The position numbers and the translations under genes were made by a program. A stretch of 64,000 bases of DNA from Nitrospirota bacterium (GTDB lineage Bacteria > Nitrospirota > UBA9217). The DNA lies in NCBI GenBank assembly GCA_963737155.1, contig CAVTRN010000002.1, forward strand, positions 128,001-192,000, written 5' to 3'. This document shows, piece after piece, positions 55,033 through 64,000 of the stretch (position 1 is its first letter; every line of letters begins with the position of its first letter). The notes under the pieces are model-generated. The model was not told the origin of the DNA and did not search any database. It was given only the letters and a program-made list of their open reading frames with translations.

Positions 55033-55200
55033 CCGTTCCTAAAAACATAGTATTTTATTTCTCATAACTATGACGGCAGCCGAACAGTGCTGCTGCCGGT
55101 TAACGTCAGGGATTCCCGCCCTGATTCGCCCAAGTCCCGTTGTTTGCTGATCGGGATTGCTTCCGGTGCCTTTTCAGTAAGACTGCTACTGGCAGGTGGC
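55033..55200 (-). ncRNA. Putative omega/reRNA scaffold of TnpB
   Basis: Stacked hairpins at the right end (tcaggg-cgggaat-ccctga; ggcagc..cactgttcg..gctgcc). The 5' boundary is uncertain. Confidence 0.45.
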
Positions 55201-56477
55201 CCGGAGAATTGCGCTGTCGACGGGATGATGGCTTCTTCTGCAATTCAGCGCAGCCTGGGGAGTCCTGTAAGGACCGTCGTTGATAGAGACTGTGATGATT
55301 GCCACAACCTCCCCGAGTCTTCATCTTGCTCCAAAACTTCCAGACGTGCTCCTCTCGATTCCTTGCAGGTAGAGGGGAGGCGGTTCTGCTTGGTATGGGA
55401 GACTCGGAATATCCTTGAACTCTTCTCGCGATCGCAAGCGCCGCTGCTTCATGCGGCGAGATGCCATGAAAAGACATATAATTGTTTCTGCCGATAGCGG
55501 ATGTGTAAGCAGGATTCACGGAGAGCACACCGACGCCTGCCTTATATGCTCTGCGGTCAAGCATGTTTAAAAAGGTGGAATAGGCGAACCCGGATAGCAT
55601 CCGCGCATACGTTACTCCCTGTTCTTTAAGAGATGCTTTCTTCTTTTCGAAGTCAAGAGTTTCATGAGCGACGGGTTTCCCTGTTTTAATTGACCGGTCG
55701 ATAATGCCGACGCAGATATCACCGTAAGTTGCCTCGGTCTGTTCCGTGGTTCTGTCTTTTATACATGCAGCATACGTTGTGTGCCAGACAAAATTGCCGA
55801 ACCGGTCAGTACGATCCCAGACAAAACGATGAAGAGCTTCGGGCAGCCTTCCAGGCAGACAGCCAGTTATTGTGGGATTTATAACCGTTTTCAGAAAGGC
55901 TAAACTGCTTGTAGAAAAGTTTTTTCGTCCCAAAGCAAATCCTGATTCGGCCTTTGTCCAAATCGTATTTCAGTTTTTCGAGTTTTTGCTCCGATGAATG
56001 GAGCTTCCGTTTTTTGTTATGGACCGCAAACCGGAGAGACTTCACCCTGGGCGTTTTCTCATGTCCGGACAATTTTTCGTCTTTGCGTATGTCAATGACA
56101 TTGTTCTCTTTGGTTCTAATCCATTTTCGCACAGATTTTATTTTTTGTTCGAGCTTTCCAACCCGCAGTTTCAATATCTCAACCGCGGAACTGATATTGC
56201 CGTCAAGATCGTAGCGGATAGCGTTAAACTGCCGGGCGGTAATACCATACTTAACAAGATACTCATTTTTGAATGAAATGGGTTTGTTGCCGGAACGAAC
56301 GCTGTCTTTAAAGAGAGAGCGTTTGATGTGCCCGTATGAGTCGCCGATATCGTCAAGAACATGATAAAGAGACTTCTTTGTGTCCAGGTAAGACATGTCA
56401 ATCAGCAAAGTTTGAGCGGTAAAAGAAAGTGTTTCACTTTTGCCGCTCTTGCCCATTTTATCCTTATTACTTGCCAT
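55106..56477 (-). pseudogene. tnpB: TnpB with an internal deletion and frameshift
   Basis: N-part ...YGITARQFNAI...ICFGTKKLF.KQF...FCLGS joins out of frame at ~55811 to TDRFGN...HETLDFEKKK...LSGFAYS...VNPAYTS.IG...HEAAALAIARR. The RuvC-I segment is missing. Confidence 0.85.
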
Positions 56478-57033
56478 TTTCCATGGCCTCCAGAGCTTTT
56501 TTTGCTTTATTGGCCGCTGACCGGCGTCCGTAGAGCCTTGCGCAAAACGATGTCAATACTTCAATCATGTCCTGCACCAGATCGTCCTTTAGCTCGGTCT
56601 GGTCTACAATAATAAGTTGACGACCTTGAGCTCGAAGTGCCGATTCTACATACTCAGACCCAAACCGCATAAGCCGGTCACGATGCAAGGCGACAATAAT
56701 ACTGACGTTGGAGTCGGCAAGCAGCTTCATGAGTTTTGGCCTGTGCCCATTAAGACCAGATCCAACCTCAGACACCGCTTTTGAAACTGACAACCCTTTG
56801 GAAGCGGCATATACGGAAAGCCGCCCGAGCTGCCCGTCCAGGTCTTTCTTTTGGTCATGACTGGATACCCGGGCATAAATAGCAACAGAACCTTGGGCAG
56901 TTTTCTGCTCTTTTATAATGATGGTTCCGGTAGGCATCTGCTCAGCCTCAACCGGCAGCTTGCCAGCCTTCCACCATTTCCATGCCGCTTGATAGGTTAT
57001 ACCTTGTTGCTTTGCCCATACGCTTAGCTTCAT
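56467..57033 (-). CDS. tnpA: IS607 serine transposase TnpA
   Basis: MKLSVWAKQQGITYQAAWKWWKAG HTH, IYARVSSHDQK.DL..Q, EVGSGLN, HRDRLMRFG, SFCARLYGRRS. Confidence 0.95.
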   Translation of the reverse strand: MKLSVWAKQQGITYQAAWKWWKAGKLPVEAEQMPTGTIIIKEQKTAQGSVAIYARVSSHDQKKDLDGQLGRLSVYAASKGLSVSKAVSEVGSGLNGHRPKLMKLLADSNVSIIVALHRDRLMRFGSEYVESALRAQGRQLIIVDQTELKDDLVQDMIEVLTSFCARLYGRRSAANKAKKALEAMENGK

Positions 57034-58036: not shown

Positions 58037-58157
58037 GCAAGACTGCAAGCCGGGCTGAAGGAGGATAAGCCTCGGATTTGTTCCTCGCTCTGTCTGCGGC
58101 ATGCTTCTCATCTCTCCGAGTGCTCAATCCTTTTATCAATCCTTGGCGCCAACCTCC

Positions 58158-59810
58158 CTAACCCGGACAAGCCGGAACCAAGAGGTTTTATAAAAACCAT
58201 GATACAATGAAGGCTCTACTCATTGTAGTCATGGAGGTTGCTATGATGATTCCTGAACGCTACCAAGATAAAATAGCCGGTTCACTATCCTGCTATGACC
58301 GCATGATCATGCAGGGCACGCTGCCCGGCTGGTGCTTCGATAAGGGGATGACGGCATTCCTCTATGCCCGACAGATCAAGATTTTCGATTATGCCCAGTT
58401 CGCCAAAGCGCTTCAGGAAAAAGTCCGGGAGAACGCTGAGGGCCTCGCGAATGAGAACAGCATTGAGATCGAGTTCATCCGCAAGCTGGGTGCGTTCCGT
58501 AAAGAGGCTCGGATCAAAGAAATCATCAAAGCGCGTGGCGAGCAACCCGGCCTTGTTCATATCTTCTCGGCCATGGAAGCCTGCACCAGCTACAAACCCT
58601 GGCACGACAAAAACACCGGCAAGACCTTTCTCAAGTATGATTCCGGAAAGTGTCTCCACTATTACTTCTACTTCATCGACAAGACGTTCGGCCTGTGCTA
58701 CCTCCGCGTTCCCACCTGGGCACCGTTCCGGCTCCAGTTCTATATGAACGGCCACAACTGGCTGGCGGCGAAATTGGCAAAAAAGAAAATCCCCTATGTT
58801 CTTCGGGAGAACGCGTTTCTCTCTATCGATAATTTTCCCAAAGCCCAGGAGCTTTCTGACAGCATCAAGGTGTCGGACTTACACCATGCACTGGACAGAT
58901 TCGCTAAACAATACTGCCCGGTCGGTAACGGGTACGGACTTACCTACCACTGGAGCACTATGCAGGTGGAATATGCCACCGACATCGTTTTCAAGAAGCA
59001 ATCGGACCTGCACACGTTGTATGAGCAAATCGTTCGAACCGCCATTCACTCCGTGAAACCGGAGAATATCGCGACCTTTCTGGGTCGGAAGCTCCACGGC
59101 AATTATCAAGGCGAAATGGGCAACAACTTCAACACCCGAATTCAGGGAACACGGATCAAGCACCATATGGGCGCTTCATCCATCAAGATGTACGACAAGT
59201 TCGGCAGCATCCTCCGGATTGAGACCACGACCAACGACGTCTCGGAGTTCAAGCACTATCGGGAAGTCCAGTCGCGGATCGGAGATCCTGTCCACAAGAA
59301 CGCACCCATGAAGAAGAACATCTACAGCCTGTTTGACCTTACGGCGATCTTCAAGGCCTCGAACCGCCGTTATCTTGAGTTCATCTCCACGTTCGACGAC
59401 CAAAGCGCGGGAATCAATAACCTTGATAAAATTTCAAAGACCGTGGAAACAGGCGACCGTTCCTACAAGGGCTTCAATCTCTTCAGCGACGATGATCTCA
59501 AACTGTTCGAGGTTCTCGCCCGCGGCGAGTTCAACATCAACGGACTTCAGAATAAATCTCTACGAAAACAGCTGCCATCCGTGACGAGCAGTACCATGAC
59601 GAGAATTCTGAAACGGCTTCACGTCCACGGCATTATTCGGAAAGTCGGAAAAACATACAAGTACTACGTTTCAAAACTCGGTAAGGCTGTTATCGCTGCG
59701 GGATTGACCATCCGAAATATGTCTGTAATCCCGCAACTGGCGCATGTTTAATGCATATTCACCAAATTGTTCTACCCATTTTGAGAAGCTTTTGATTCTT
59801 TAGTTACTAA
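58158..59810 (+). mobile_element. Putative IS-like element without TIRs, flanked by CTAA direct repeats
   Basis: CTAA at 58158-58161 and 59807-59810; left end cccggacaagccggaacc forms a small hairpin; a single ORF fills the element. Boundaries are inferred. Confidence 0.55.
58243..59751 (+). CDS. Putative transposase with Rep_trans-like motifs and a C-terminal winged helix (often labelled a MarR regulator)
   Basis: SCYDRMIMQG, CLHYYFYFID, QVEYATDIVF, SIKMYDKFGSILRIETT, C-terminal wHTH; RBS ggaggt before the ATG at 58243. Confidence 0.65.
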   Translation: MMIPERYQDKIAGSLSCYDRMIMQGTLPGWCFDKGMTAFLYARQIKIFDYAQFAKALQEKVRENAEGLANENSIEIEFIRKLGAFRKEARIKEIIKARGEQPGLVHIFSAMEACTSYKPWHDKNTGKTFLKYDSGKCLHYYFYFIDKTFGLCYLRVPTWAPFRLQFYMNGHNWLAAKLAKKKIPYVLRENAFLSIDNFPKAQELSDSIKVSDLHHALDRFAKQYCPVGNGYGLTYHWSTMQVEYATDIVFKKQSDLHTLYEQIVRTAIHSVKPENIATFLGRKLHGNYQGEMGNNFNTRIQGTRIKHHMGASSIKMYDKFGSILRIETTTNDVSEFKHYREVQSRIGDPVHKNAPMKKNIYSLFDLTAIFKASNRRYLEFISTFDDQSAGINNLDKISKTVETGDRSYKGFNLFSDDDLKLFEVLARGEFNINGLQNKSLRKQLPSVTSSTMTRILKRLHVHGIIRKVGKTYKYYVSKLGKAVIAAGLTIRNMSVIPQLAHV

Positions 59811-60140: not shown

Positions 60141-61445
60141 TTAGAACGAAAGCACCTTCCCCATAAAGAGTATCAGGCCAGTTTGTTTTTCCCGAATAAA
60201 AAATATATAGGGATGATCGATCATAAGCGTCAGTTGAGGCAGCGGCACGCTCGTCGTACTCACCGAGATGCCGGTCGCGGCTGCTGCCTCTGTCCCGGAC
60301 TCGTCCACGCTGATAAAGGTTTGATGGAAGACACCGCTGATAAATAGGTCGTGGTTCCCGTCAATGCCGGAGAAGTCCGCGGTAGCCGGATTGAATGCGT
60401 CGGTCATGCCCAGAGAACTCAAAATAGGAACCATGCTTGCGGTGTAAGTAAAGGTGAATTTCGGGAGAGAAAGATCTACTTCCTGAGCGGCCAACTGACT
60501 GGTAATGTCACCCAGTATGGTCGGCGTAAGCGAGGATAGAAACGCATCGAACGTATCGGGATCCGGCATGATCATGAGCATCGAAAAATTGTTTCCGGCA
60601 TAGGGGATATCGACAGCCTGACATCCATCTGCCTGCGCATAAGACACCATAAAAGTTTGGCGCATAAAGGGAACCGATGATGTGGAACTGTTCTGATTGA
60701 AAAAGGACTGATTCGTCGTGCTCGCTTCCGAAAACGGTGACGCCCAGTTTGCCTTGAACCATAGGGCGTTCGTAAGAACGACGCGGGTATTGGGTGTTAC
60801 GCCTCCCTCGGGGATCAGGTTCTGGATCCTGTTATTCGTTTGGCTTTCCACCCATGCGTTGATCGTACTTCGCGCGTCCTCCGTCGCGTTGATGAAGTCA
60901 GCGAGATAAATGCCCGCACCGTAATTTACCGCGAGGGTGTCCAAATATGCCGGGAGAATGGGAAAACCCACTTGTCCCCAGATTGCATTGGCGTTCCTGA
61001 GCATGGGGAGTTGAGCGCCGGTTGAGGTAATGGAACCTGTGCCCTCGCTCGTGATCAATAGGTCGAGCTCATTTAGGGCCATGTTAAGGCGGTCTTGGGG
61101 AAGAGAAAACGACAGCGCCTGTTCGATCCCGCTTAAAGTATTCCCGCCAGCGCCCGGCGCTGCAAGAGCAAAGGCCTGGGTTATGCTATACGGAGAGAAA
61201 GCGGTATTGCTGTTTCCGCTCGGGTCGAGAAGGGGGAAAACCTTAAGTGCGAAATCCGTGTTGCCCGCTATGACCGCCGTGAAGTCCTCGCCAGGTACTT
61301 GCGGGTTCGTGTCACGCGCCAGGGACGACTGCGCAATCTGATATTGCGGCGGCTGCGTATTGTTTCCGGATTTACTGCACGCTATTGCGAGACCAAGCAG
61401 GCAGAAGGAAAAGAACCGTAAATTAGAGATAATTTTACTACACAT
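60141..61445 (-). CDS. Serpin family lipoprotein
   Basis: LAIAC lipobox, N.AFSPYSI, INAWVE.QT, NALWFKANW, LPKF, VDESGTEAAAATG hinge, DHPYIFFIRE..TGLILFMG. Confidence 0.95.
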   Translation of the reverse strand: MCSKIISNLRFFSFCLLGLAIACSKSGNNTQPPQYQIAQSSLARDTNPQVPGEDFTAVIAGNTDFALKVFPLLDPSGNSNTAFSPYSITQAFALAAPGAGGNTLSGIEQALSFSLPQDRLNMALNELDLLITSEGTGSITSTGAQLPMLRNANAIWGQVGFPILPAYLDTLAVNYGAGIYLADFINATEDARSTINAWVESQTNNRIQNLIPEGGVTPNTRVVLTNALWFKANWASPFSEASTTNQSFFNQNSSTSSVPFMRQTFMVSYAQADGCQAVDIPYAGNNFSMLMIMPDPDTFDAFLSSLTPTILGDITSQLAAQEVDLSLPKFTFTYTASMVPILSSLGMTDAFNPATADFSGIDGNHDLFISGVFHQTFISVDESGTEAAAATGISVSTTSVPLPQLTLMIDHPYIFFIREKQTGLILFMGKVLSF

Positions 61446-62322: not shown

Positions 62323-62902
62323 TTAGGCCGCTTTATCCAGTTTGTAGGTTTTGAAGAATTTTCTCACGTAGTTTGCAATCACATCGCAGGCCTCTTCAAG
62401 GGCGAAATGCCCTGTAGCGAGCATATGCACTTCGATGTTCCTAAGGTCACGCATGTAGGCTTTCGCGCCCTGAGGACTGAAGATTTTGTCATTTTTCCCC
62501 CATACGACAAGTGTTGGCGGCTGGTGATTTCTGAAATAGTTATGCCATTCAGGATAACGTTTCACGTTGGAGCCGAAGTCCGACCGCAGCTCGAGCTGAA
62601 TAAGTTTGTTGCCGGGCCTTTCCAGAAAATACTGATCCATATTCCAGGCATCGGGGCTAATCCTGCTCATGTCACGCACTCCGTTGCTGTATATCCACTT
62701 GGTACTCTCCATCTTGAAGGTCTTAAGCACAGGCCATTCGTTAGCTCTCGTCCTCTTTTCCCATAGTGGACTCCTGCTCTTAACCAAAGGTGTCAGCCCC
62801 TCTTCGTAGGCGTTGGTATTTTGGATGATGAGCGATTCGATCCGCTCTGGATGCTTCTCGGCAATCCTGAAGCCTACAGGCCCGCCATAATCCTGCATAT
62901 AA
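62323..62902 (-). pseudogene. C-terminal part of an alpha/beta hydrolase (epoxide hydrolase/dehalogenase-like) cut by IS1182
   Basis: Begins at the nucleophile motif MQDYGGPVG directly against the IS end; WGKND, TGHFALEE. Confidence 0.85.
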
Positions 62903-64000
62903 GAGCCTGTTGCTCAAATGCCAGCATAGCCGTTTATGATCGCCCATATGGGATAGTGCCAGACTGCAAATGGGGTATCTCTGCGAAGCACACGGCATGA
63001 ATCAGCTGTCGTTTTCGTTCTTTATACTGCCATCTGGGCCGCAATCTCTTTGCCGCTTCGCCAAAGCTTCAAGAGATTGTGCGTCGCGCAGATGAGTTTC
63101 CATTCCTGGGAGCAGGCTTCAATCCCTCGGCGCATGTAGTGCCGGATGCCGCGATTGTCTTTAATCTGGCCAAAGATCGGTTCGACGGTCTGGCCTCGTT
63201 TCTTATAAAGCTCTCTGCCCCGCTTGGTCAGGAGCTTCCTCTCCATCCTCTGCCGGAGTGTCAGGCTTTTTGGTATCCTCCCTTGGGGCGGGGATGATGC
63301 GGCGGCCTCTTTACGTTGCTTCCAGTCTTTCTTGGTTGCGATAAGATGTTCGGGACCGTCGGGAGTGATGGCCGCAAAGTTCTTCTCACTTGCGTAGCCG
63401 GCATCGCTCAGAGATATTTCGATCTTCAGTTCTTTTTGCAGGGCGATCTCGTTTAAGTTCTCCTGGGCCTTCTGGATCATGGGATGCAGCTGGTTGATGT
63501 CGTTTTCCTGGTTCGTGACCTCGGCGGCGATGATGATCTGCTCCTTGGTGACCACGGCCTGGCTGTTGTAGCCCTGAACATATCCGCTTCGGGTTTTCAT
63601 GATCCTGCTGTCCGGATCAGTCATATTGGCCTTCGCTTCCGACGATGGCGTCGGATCAGGCTCCTGAGGTTTGCGGCCCCGTTTCTTGCTGCCGGTTTCA
63701 GCCTCTTGGGCCTGTCGTTCTTCGATCTTTGACTGTTGCTCGGCTGCTGCCTCTGCAGCCTGTTCTTCCAACCGCTTTTTGCACGCGGCAAGGCGGGCTC
63801 TGCGGCTGGTTCGGTCGGCAAGTTCATCAGGAAGTTCGTCGCCCCGTTTGTTTTGGCCGTACTGCCGGTCTTCCTCGGTGTCCTTGGCCTCCGCTTCATC
63901 GAGCATCCTCTTCACTTCCTGCTCGATATGTTCGTACGTGCGGTTGGCTTCCAGGGCTGCGTTAGCCTTTATCTTGCTCCCGTCAAGGGCCACGATGCCG
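62903..64000 (-). mobile_element. IS1182-family element (right part; continues beyond the window)
   Basis: Probable terminal IR GAGCCTGTTGCTCAAATG at 62903, abutting the broken hydrolase gene. Confidence 0.8.
63022..64000 (-). CDS. IS1182 transposase (partial)
   Basis: ALDGSKIKANA, NMTDPDSRIMK, QGYNSQ, SDAGY, YKKRGQTVEPIFGQIK, HNLLKL. Confidence 0.93.
   Translation of the reverse strand, partial: GIVALDGSKIKANAALEANRTYEHIEQEVKRMLDEAEAKDTEEDRQYGQNKRGDELPDELADRTSRRARLAACKKRLEEQAAEAAAEQQSKIEERQAQEAETGSKKRGRKPQEPDPTPSSEAKANMTDPDSRIMKTRSGYVQGYNSQAVVTKEQIIIAAEVTNQENDINQLHPMIQKAQENLNEIALQKELKIEISLSDAGYASEKNFAAITPDGPEHLIATKKDWKQRKEAAASSPPQGRIPKSLTLRQRMERKLLTKRGRELYKKRGQTVEPIFGQIKDNRGIRHYMRRGIEACSQEWKLICATHNLLKLWRSGKEIAAQMAV

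Follow-up and report, generated by a model that had tools for sequence, protein, structure and literature searches.

The analysed window, a 64,000-nt stretch of a contig (CAVTRN010000002.1) from a Nitrospirota bacterium (GenBank assembly GCA_963737155.1), carries a single-gene segment of ~1.65 kb between two unrelated genes, one for an α/β-hydrolase on the left and one for a serpin on the right. A preliminary description, made from the sequence alone, had reported that one open reading frame (ORF) of ~502 amino acids (aa) almost fills this segment, that CTAA stands at both ends with a small ccgg-acaag-ccgg hairpin at the left, and that terminal inverted repeats are lacking. All of these features are present between 58158 and 59810. 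CTAA occurs at 58158–58161 and again at 59807–59810, and comparison of the two ends in inverted orientation revealed no terminal inverted repeat. The ORF runs from an ATG at 58243 to a stop codon at 59749–59751, with GGAGG 5 nt upstream of the ATG; an alternative form of 514 aa is open from an ATG at 58207. The non-coding ends are short (83 nt on the left, about 57 nt on the right), the ORF list shows no second conserved gene within the segment, and Rfam gave no match inside it. Folded as DNA, the left non-coding end gave z values of −3.6 (this strand) and −4.1 (opposite strand); the outermost helix of this fold pairs with the flank and is particular to this copy. As set out below, the segment is a mobile element, and its protein is a candidate transposase of an unusual kind.

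A whole-genome search recovered seven copies of the element, 99.8–100% identical, on both strands of one contig (C2), all of which encode the identical 502-aa protein. Their flanks are unrelated right up to the common C/CTAA...CTAA/ boundaries. Four of the seven lie within 100 kb (G000 C2:2059906-2156446) in mixed orientation, ~120–220 kb from the turning point of the GC skew at ~1.94 Mb, the presumed terminus. Empty sites with a single CTAA, which the preliminary description had suggested looking for, were found in orthologous and in paralogous form. In two genomes of the same genus (G011 and G001), the left and right flanks of the window copy are contiguous, and the G011 site gave an ungapped 35-column alignment to the window flanks joined via one copy of CTAA. 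The copy at C2:636295 interrupts a gene built of 120-bp repeats, and the neighbouring repeat reads ...AAACCCTAATGGC..., with a single CCTAAT and the reading frame kept. Contigs from other soil and wetland metagenome runs break at 58156/58157 and go on into different flanks; these are further insertion sites. The agreement of the boundaries is far beyond chance.

Shortened derivatives accompany the full-length copies. The same genome holds an internally deleted copy (C2:1979698-1980051), miniatures made of the left end plus the right end (C2:750465 and C2:634059) and a mini copy of ~72 nt (C2:952999). Same-genus genomes carry miniatures of 150–230 bp with the same left terminus, (C)CTAACCCGGACAAGCCGGAAC, and a shared right terminus of 40–45 nt that includes the CCATTTTG box and ends in ACTAA. 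The 21-nt left end, with one mismatch allowed, occurs in 14 of 15 genomes of the genus (28, 17, 13, 11, 9, 8 and 8 times in the richest; control matches, 0). A stop-free ORF was found in only two of these 15 genomes, namely the host genome (G000, 7 copies) and G010 (1 copy), with broken or partial copies in G001, G002 and G013, and a wider search found any ORF match in 7 of 41 genomes. Since the miniatures keep both ends, both ends are required cis-acting sites, served by the transposase in trans. The same-genus miniatures (L031–L050) form several subfamilies whose interiors are unrelated to the full-length element and consist of long inverted repeats rich in CGCAAAG-like units; one of them (L036) carries a nested insertion.

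We then considered how far the element extends beyond this genus. Relatives of the protein number at least 7,999, most of them on contigs of 1.6–2.5 kb, and are named ‘MarR family transcriptional regulator’ or hypothetical protein, some of them ArsR regulator. An exhaustive search of representatives at 50% identity returned 7,065 at E ≤ 1e-3, 3,603 at E ≤ 1e-10 and 771 at E ≤ 1e-30, and among species-representative genomes a close relative is encoded in 290 of 324 candidate stretches. The record titles name Nitrospirota, Bacillota, Acidobacteriota, Thermodesulfobacteriota, ‘delta proteobacteria’, Planctomycetota, Gemmatimonadaceae, Dehalococcoidia, Armatimonadota, Cloacimonadota and Pseudomonadota. 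The element termini are also the exact ends of several contigs of 1,640–1,651 bp. Full-length, stop-free copies number 12, 7, 7 and 4 in four unrelated genomes, and gut Lachnospiraceae carry up to 12 per genome. According to the preliminary description, single-copy homologues in conserved synteny would have spoken against a transposon; instead, homologues reach 4–12 copies per genome and share ends, and empty sites were found for the element itself. The seven copies with their miniatures, which that description had proposed searching for by their shared ends, the empty sites and the multi-copy relatives in other phyla together show that the segment is a mobile element, as it had suspected.

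No match was found in 50,697 phage records, and 13 of 72,556 plasmid records matched, all of them megaplasmids of at least 270 kb. One megaplasmid relative (48% identity) has the left end CCTAA/GCCGG-N5-CCGG and the right end ACTAA. Actinobacterial relatives on Rhodococcus and Mycobacterium megaplasmids (L153 and L154) are 20–23% identical, some with several copies per record; around these we saw no obvious CCTAA or CCGG ends and did not delimit elements, and the ends or targets may differ in deep branches of the family. Two further relatives have unusual surroundings. A copy in Dorea sp. 5-2 (G042:C4:242511-245708) is split after residue ~315 by ~1.7 kb of other DNA, which may be a nested insertion. 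In a metagenome-assembled genome of Pseudomonadota (L082:2750-2830), the right end ...AGAACTAA is directly followed by nine tandem octamers, GTACCTAA, each holding the CCTAA target core; the array could mark a target hot-spot or have arisen through repeated nick-and-join reactions that went astray.

The left junction has the form flank/CCTAA and then CCCGG-N5-CCGGAA in all lineages that were examined; of 65 distinct insertion contexts from various lineages, 62 carry CCTAA as the left pentamer. The two CCGG stems do not change, whereas the loop does, being ACAAG, ATAAA, ACGAG, CAAAG, CGTAG or CATAG in elements whose proteins are 57–92% identical, and the CCGG-N5-CCGG palindrome is retained in the miniatures. 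It begins 3 nt 3′ of the inferred cut. It may fold into a hairpin, or a winged-helix dimer may bind it as duplex, its half-sites being 9 bp apart. The suggestion in the preliminary description that a hairpin serves here as the nicking origin agrees with the invariance and position of the palindrome, and the hairpin itself, which shows no covariation, stays a candidate. At the right end, a TGCCATTTT-like box starts 36–37 nt away from the final base of the right CTAA, a position conserved in 14 right ends of different lineages, and the end terminates in (A/C)CT. Right ends were called in 55 contexts, the other 10 of the 65 having no called right end: AA comes next in 43, CA or TA in 5 (all acidobacterial) and something else in 7, most of these last probably misplaced by the regular expression and not corrected individually. 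T-run and A-run pairings noted by eye around the TGCCATTTT box in several lineages proved to be low-complexity and inconsistent, and a right-end hairpin is not claimed.

The position of the cut emerged from one acidobacterial genome with seven otherwise identical copies. All seven have CCTAA at the left; at the right, ACT is followed by AA in three, by TA in two and by CA in two. Several of these copies sit in repeated palindromic sequence, and the uninterrupted target repeat, CGCTYCCTNACGGTCGCGG (N = C, T or G), occurs six times in the same genome, with 0 control matches. These junctions, read against the uninterrupted repeats, place the target base that follows CCT at the right junction, and thus indicate that the element AACCCGG...ACT was inserted into CCT^NA in one orientation. 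By the same comparison, the left CTAA owes its AA to the element and the right CTAA owes its AA to the target; the inserted DNA in the window is therefore 58160–59808, with a duplication of at most CT, and the left boundary could move 1–2 nt leftward if CT is duplicated. The target is CCTAA or CCTNA, cut after CCT, with fixed orientation and 0–2 bp duplicated. CTAA as the target or junction was thus right in substance in the preliminary description, and simple duplication of CTAA has to be given up. If an element were excised and its ends joined, the junction would read ACT/AA (CCT/AA in Lachnospiraceae), which shares its core with the target.

Database searches placed the protein in no known family. 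Pfam gave only sub-threshold winged-helix matches at residues 438–485; NCBIfam, including the NCBI insertion sequence (IS) family models as far as it contains them, gave no match at E ≤ 1; the PDB, searched by sequence and by profile, matched the winged helix alone; ESM Atlas returned only unnamed clusters, and PHROGs nothing useful. Conservation was read from an alignment of 68 sequences, down to 29% identity. Invariant residues are D19, R20, E112, Y141, Y143, G150, P161, N169, N190, E243, F250, Y317, R325 and E327, and K87, R155, D247, K315 and K319, with some further residues, are kept in 90% or more of the sequences. The family motifs follow in the order D19; Q241-x-E243-x-A245-x-D247; K315-x-Y317-x-K319; and (V/I)-x-R325-x-E327. 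They include QVEYATD, MYDK and LRIE, which the preliminary description had singled out in that order as reminiscent of Rep_trans replication initiators and which are indeed the most conserved positions of the family.

An AlphaFold2 model built from the family alignment (predicted local distance difference test, 94; predicted template modelling score, 0.83) shows two successive strand-helix-four-strand-helix units, at residues 11–180 and 236–381, followed by a winged helix. In VIA-align, the model matched the TATA-binding protein (TBP) 1mp9_A with Z 8.9 and a root-mean-square deviation (rmsd) of 4.4 over 183 of 193 residues, spanning model residues 1–395; other TBPs reached Z 8.0–8.2, and the TBPs aligned over 172–183 residues. 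The VIA-align lists are dominated by winged-helix proteins, and the C-terminus matched HxlR-, MarR- and ArsR-type structures with Z up to 9.6. The MarR label that the preliminary description had expected the winged helix to attract is one under which relatives are commonly named. Foldseek against the PDB gave only four matches at E ≤ 1e-3, all of them chains of 4cij (A–D), the Rep_trans protein RepSTK1, with E from 1.5e-4 to 2.7e-4 and probability 0.99–1.0; RepDS and RepDE followed at 8e-3 and 1.9e-2 (4cwe and 4cwc), and a TBP at 3.9e-2. Against the viral library BFVD, Foldseek returned 19 matches at E ≤ 1e-3, including giant-virus TBPs and Inoviridae Rep proteins, among them the Inoviridae Rep A0A345MNV4 (E 1.7e-4) and the phycodnavirus TBP A0A2N9QVX7. 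In the model, the candidate active-site residues lie on separate β-strands with i/i+2 spacing. The motif K315-x-Y317-x-K319 lies on strand 312–319, and its equivalence to the tyrosine motif of Rep_trans is one of order and pattern, not of superposition; D19, E243 and E327, on three different strands in the Rep_trans order, are candidate metal ligands. The predicted TBP-like fold is solid; a Rep_trans-like active site is supported, but not proven, by the Foldseek ranking, the motif order and the location on strands. The features of the element are listed in Table 1.

Table 1 Features of the element in the window (positions are those of the window).
Feature	Position	Strand	Description	Basis
Inserted element	58160..59808	+	1,649 bp; starts AACCCGG, ends GTTACT	7 copies, cut mapping, empty sites
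Left junction CCTAA	58157..58161	+	Target CCT, then the element's first bases AA	62/65 contexts; 7/7 copies here
Left non-coding end	58160..58242	+	83 nt; two more palindromes, then ribosome-binding site	
Palindrome CCGG-ACAAG-CCGG	58163..58175	+	Candidate hairpin or candidate winged-helix dimer binding site	
Putative transposase gene	58243..59751	+	502 aa plus stop	Identical in 7/7 copies
Residues 1-386	58243..59400	+	Predicted TBP-like double-repeat β-sheet, putative Rep_trans-like nuclease	AlphaFold2, 1mp9_A, 4cij
Tyr317 codon	59191..59193	+	Candidate catalytic tyrosine in K-x-Y-x-K	Invariant 68/68; strand 312-319; matches RepD R189-x-Y191-x-K193
Residues about 385-502	59395..59748	+	Predicted winged helix-turn-helix of MarR/HxlR/ArsR type	VIA-align, weak sub-cut-off Pfam
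Right-end box CCCATTTTG	59775..59783	+	Consensus TGCCATTTT	14 right ends, miniatures
Right junction ACTAA	59806..59810	+	Element's final ACT, then target AA	7/7 copies here

The Rep_trans family (PF02486) includes RepC and RepD of pT181 and pC221, RepSTK1 (4CIJ), RstA of CTXphi and NicK of ICEBs1. In RepD, as described in the accessible part of PMC4797284 (Carr et al. 2016), the metal ligands D46, D142 and E214 each lie on a separate strand, Y191 is the nucleophile, flanked by R189 and K193, and R140, A144, D146 and R212 are conserved. The accessible part of PMC5714925 defines the motifs N′ (D), I (RxD), II, III (YxK) and IV (hydrophobic-x-R-x-E), and assigns the family to plasmid replication, phage replication and the transfer of integrative and conjugative elements (ICEs), with no transposase among these roles. 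We found RxDxAxD, RxYxK and RxE in pT181 RepC and in a 12-sequence Rep_trans alignment. The protein in the window resembles this family in its predicted TBP-like crescent β-sheet and in the order, on strands, of an N-terminal Asp, acid-x-Ala-x-Asp, basic-x-Tyr-x-Lys and Arg-x-Glu; both combine a nuclease domain, putative here, with a DNA-binding module on its C-terminal side, and both go with an inverted repeat at the known or presumed nick region. The origin repeat of pT181 (L051:4359-4378) likewise has CTAA between CCGG stems, and RepC presumably nicks it between T and A. Unlike Rep_trans, the protein has extra invariant residues in the first repeat (E112, Y141, Y143), a larger domain of about 385 aa with long insertions, and a fusion to a true winged helix, and it belongs to a chromosomal multi-copy insertion sequence, not to a replicon or conjugative element.

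A second family of initiators, Rep-Arvir (DUF7845, PF25227), resembles the protein in overall architecture. In the accessible part of PMC13107129, Rep-Arvir is described as a TBP-fold nuclease (E25, D207, Y283, E303) with a MarR-like winged helix that acts on a bipartite origin of a bind site and a nick site, as exclusive to archaea, where it occurs in viruses, plasmids and ICEs, and as related to Rep_trans in structure only. Like Rep-Arvir (for example, RepSNJ2), the protein would consist of a TBP-fold nuclease of about 300–390 aa followed by a MarR-like winged helix, and proteins of both kinds are often named ‘MarR family transcriptional regulator’. The spacing is similar as well, E25/D207/Y283/E303 corresponding to D19/E243-D247/Y317/E327, and the two viral-library matches named above, A0A2N9QVX7 and A0A345MNV4, are also reported for RepSNJ2 (accessible part of PMC13107129). 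The differences are that the DUF7845 model does not match, that hhalign against a 24-sequence Rep-Arvir alignment gave a probability of 0.3%, and that the IS family is bacterial and transposon-borne, unlike the archaeal Rep-Arvir of viruses, plasmids and ICEs.

The known prokaryotic transposases belong to the DDE, DEDD, HUH, serine recombinase, tyrosine recombinase and Cas1 classes. The preliminary description had found no DDE, HUH or recombinase signature, and the searches agree with this: no transposase or recombinase family matched, and the double repeat of the model is TBP-like, which sets it apart from RNase H and HUH folds. The element nonetheless shares much of its behaviour with IS200/IS605. 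It has dissimilar ends and no terminal inverted repeats, inserts 3′ of a short target in a fixed orientation with no real duplication (at most the 2 bp CT), has a left-flank cleavage site that resembles the right-end one, and carries a small palindrome beside the left cleavage site. Unlike the HUH Y1 enzyme TnpA of IS200/IS605, its protein is TBP-like and not HUH/RRM in predicted fold, ~3 times larger and without a family match (Pfam, NCBIfam); a right-end hairpin, too, is not established. With IS91, ISCR and Helitrons, it has in common duplication-free insertion next to a conserved tetranucleotide, asymmetry between an ‘ori’ and a ‘ter’ end and the idea of a replication-initiator-type enzyme acting as transposase. 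Those elements use HUH Y2 enzymes of a different superfamily, and the copies examined here gave no sign of read-through or one-ended products.

The target of the IS5 family, whose transposase is of the DDE type, is CTAA/YTAR, and the element resembles IS5 in preferring a target that contains CTAA. Unlike this element, IS5 has terminal inverted repeats, an RNase H-fold DDE transposase, a 4-bp duplication and insertion in either orientation. For DDE insertion sequences in general (IS5, IS4, IS1182), there was no transposase match in NCBIfam or Pfam and the predicted fold is not RNase H-like; moreover, the right CTNA differs from the left CTAA in four of the seven identical acidobacterial copies, which argues against a fixed DDE duplication. 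IS110/IS1111, which combines a DEDD RuvC-like enzyme with a long non-coding end for a guide RNA (bridge or seek RNA), fits no better, given no family match, ends of only 83 and about 57 nt, no Rfam match and a target of only 5 nt. The IS family is absent from the annotation libraries searched (Pfam and NCBIfam), and we found no description of an IS family of this kind, or of a TBP-fold or Rep_trans transposase, in the literature, which was covered except for ISfinder and subscription journals.

From these comparisons, we think it likely that the element is an autonomous IS of a new family and that its sole protein is a Rep_trans-like tyrosine nickase cutting CT^AA. Somewhat less firmly, we lean towards regarding it as the first transposon family with a transposase derived from the Rep_trans/TBP fold, and hence as a second independent recruitment of a replication initiator, parallel to that of the HUH enzymes (IS200/IS605, IS91, Helitrons). 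In the mechanism we propose, the winged helix would bind the two ends, recognising the CCGG-N5-CCGG palindrome at the left end and the TGCCATTTT box at the right end. At each junction, Tyr317, aided by a metal held by D19, E243 (with D247) and E327, would nick a single strand of xCT^AA immediately after CT, forming a 5′-phosphotyrosine link. The 3′-OH of the element (...ACT) would be joined to its own 5′ end (AACCCGG...), and the resulting circular junction, ACT/AA, would mimic the target CCT/AA. The same nick-and-join reaction on CCTAA or CCTNA would then insert the element 3′ of CCT in one orientation with 0–2 bp duplicated. Excision might proceed as a single-stranded circle as in IS608, the ‘peel and paste’ logic of IS200/IS605 being carried out by a non-HUH enzyme; replicative, IS91-like rolling-circle copying via displacement synthesis would be equally compatible with the data. 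Tyr141 and Tyr143, with Glu112, may form a second active centre in the first TBP repeat, such that one protomer cuts both ends; this would be a two-tyrosine mechanism, unlike that of Rep_trans replication proteins. Mobility, the anatomy of the ends, the target with the position of the cut, the predicted fold and the conservation of the candidate catalytic residues are shown by the data; chemistry, single-strandedness, the circular intermediate, the dimer state and the strand that is cut are points that we infer.

Several observations weigh against a Rep_trans-like nickase. PF02486 matched neither the protein (E ≤ 1), nor the 68 relatives (E ≤ 0.1), nor anything in the whole genome (E ≤ 10), and the DUF7845 model gave no match in the protein, the 68 relatives or the genome (E ≤ 10). 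An hhalign comparison of the family with the Rep_trans alignment returned a probability of 0.2%; because hhalign likewise fails to pair Rep_trans with Rep-Arvir, to which it is structurally related, this negative is weak. A run with -norealign that gave 98.8% over 26 columns was an artefact, the default run giving 0.2%, and a core-versus-core comparison, which paired LRIETT with RLDLAI at a probability of 0.17%, was not meaningful. Rep_trans chains are absent from the best 50 entries of both VIA-align lists, where TBPs are present, so that ‘TBP-like’ is firmer than ‘Rep_trans-like’. The Foldseek matches have low TM-scores (0.19–0.33) and rmsd values of 12–13 Å. In sequence, Q241 replaces the Arg of motif I, next to E243 in place of its Asp, and a tight hairpin leaves a spacing of 8 residues between the Tyr and RxE, compared with 21 in RepC. 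The lagging-strand bias typical of IS200/IS605 showed no sign in the seven copies, a small sample in which GC-skew replichore assignment placed three on the leading and four on the lagging strand. The 4-bp stem of the palindrome never varies and gives no covariation for a hairpin; the lack of both strand bias and covariation is compatible with hairpin and duplex site alike. Among the contigs, no circular junction or excision joint was seen (no reads were examined). As for the Rep_trans-like assignment made in the preliminary description, the 4cij matches, the Inoviridae Rep and the motif order stand on its side, and the missing Pfam and profile signal and the low superposition scores on the other.

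A rival reading is a different chemistry, in which the same transposase would use D19, E243/D247 and E327 as a hydrolytic metal centre, make a double-strand cut with a 2-nt stagger at C^CT and duplicate CT, with Tyr317 structural or DNA-binding. CT does stand on both sides of every copy, which makes a 2-bp duplication possible, and such an enzyme would suit both the absence of strand bias in seven copies and the lack of Rep_trans homology by profile methods. However, orientation is strictly fixed on a non-palindromic target, as the 62 of 65 CCTAA left junctions attest; the ends are entirely dissimilar, which is unusual for double-strand cut-and-paste enzymes; and the predicted fold is not RNase H-like, whereas the invariant basic-x-Y-x-K strand fits the nucleophile motif of Rep_trans. 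We regard this alternative as unlikely.

Two other explanations deny the protein the role of transposase. In one, the ORF would be a DNA-binding passenger or regulator, composed of a TBP-like clamp and a winged helix, and an unlinked enzyme would move the element in trans. IS200/IS605 derivatives that carry only tnpB are moved in this way, TBP itself is a non-catalytic DNA binder that aligned over almost its full length, and the ORF-less miniatures, mobilised in trans, outnumber autonomous copies in relatives. Yet the same single-ORF layout and ends recur in several phyla at 4–12 copies per genome with no second conserved gene within the element, and the invariant Tyr, Lys/Arg and carboxylates at alternate strand positions have an arrangement that suits an active site rather than a DNA saddle; a passenger is quite improbable. 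The gene might otherwise be the replication initiator of an integrated plasmid or filamentous prophage. Rep_trans is known only from plasmids, phages and ICEs in the accessible part of PMC5714925, and the closest architecture, Rep-Arvir, is viral or plasmid-borne. The repeated unit, however, is 1,649 bp with one gene at seven unrelated chromosomal sites, once inside a gene, and the searches matched no phage record and only megaplasmids, on which the element is a passenger; we give this explanation almost no credence. A Rep_trans-like tyrosine nickase encoded by an autonomous IS is the reading that we retain.

Further genes of note, some of mobile-element type, lie nearby in the window. On the right of the IS, the serpin gene (60141–61445, minus strand) is full-length (Pfam Serpin, E 4.6e-101), has a lipoprotein-like N-terminus and is conserved beside the insertion site in several same-genus genomes. 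Further on, a DDE_Tnp_1-type transposase gene occupies window positions 63022–63993 (minus strand) and extends beyond the window end, adjoining an N-terminally truncated α/β-hydrolase gene (62323–62898). A 1.1-kb sequence beside another IS copy (L005:1-1122) is 98–100% identical to the window from 63368 onward and to five further genomic sites, which indicates that the DDE_Tnp_1-type element is multi-copy as well. To the left, the region 55106–57033 (minus strand) holds a serine-recombinase (Resolvase) gene at 56467–57033, followed by overlapping ORFs at 55806–56477 and 55106–55933 with no Pfam match at 1e-5; in layout, this resembles an IS607-type unit whose accessory gene is split or degenerate.

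If the proposed reading is correct, a Rep_trans-like class would be added to the known transposase classes, and both known lineages of rolling-circle initiators would have been turned into transposases. The family would be very large, spread over many bacterial phyla and counting more than 7,000 clusters at 50% identity, and hidden until now by MarR and ArsR names; thousands of genes annotated as MarR or ArsR regulators or as hypothetical would become transposases. The reading would also account for many 1.6-kb assembly breaks in metagenome bins and give a parent element to a widespread set of miniature repeats. The element might also serve as a tool for DNA insertion, being small, dependent on a single protein and directed to a 5-nt site, where it would insert in one orientation with no target duplication. 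For the biology of the family itself, recognition would be limited to one 5-nt core, CCT^AA, common to the target and to the element's own joined ends.

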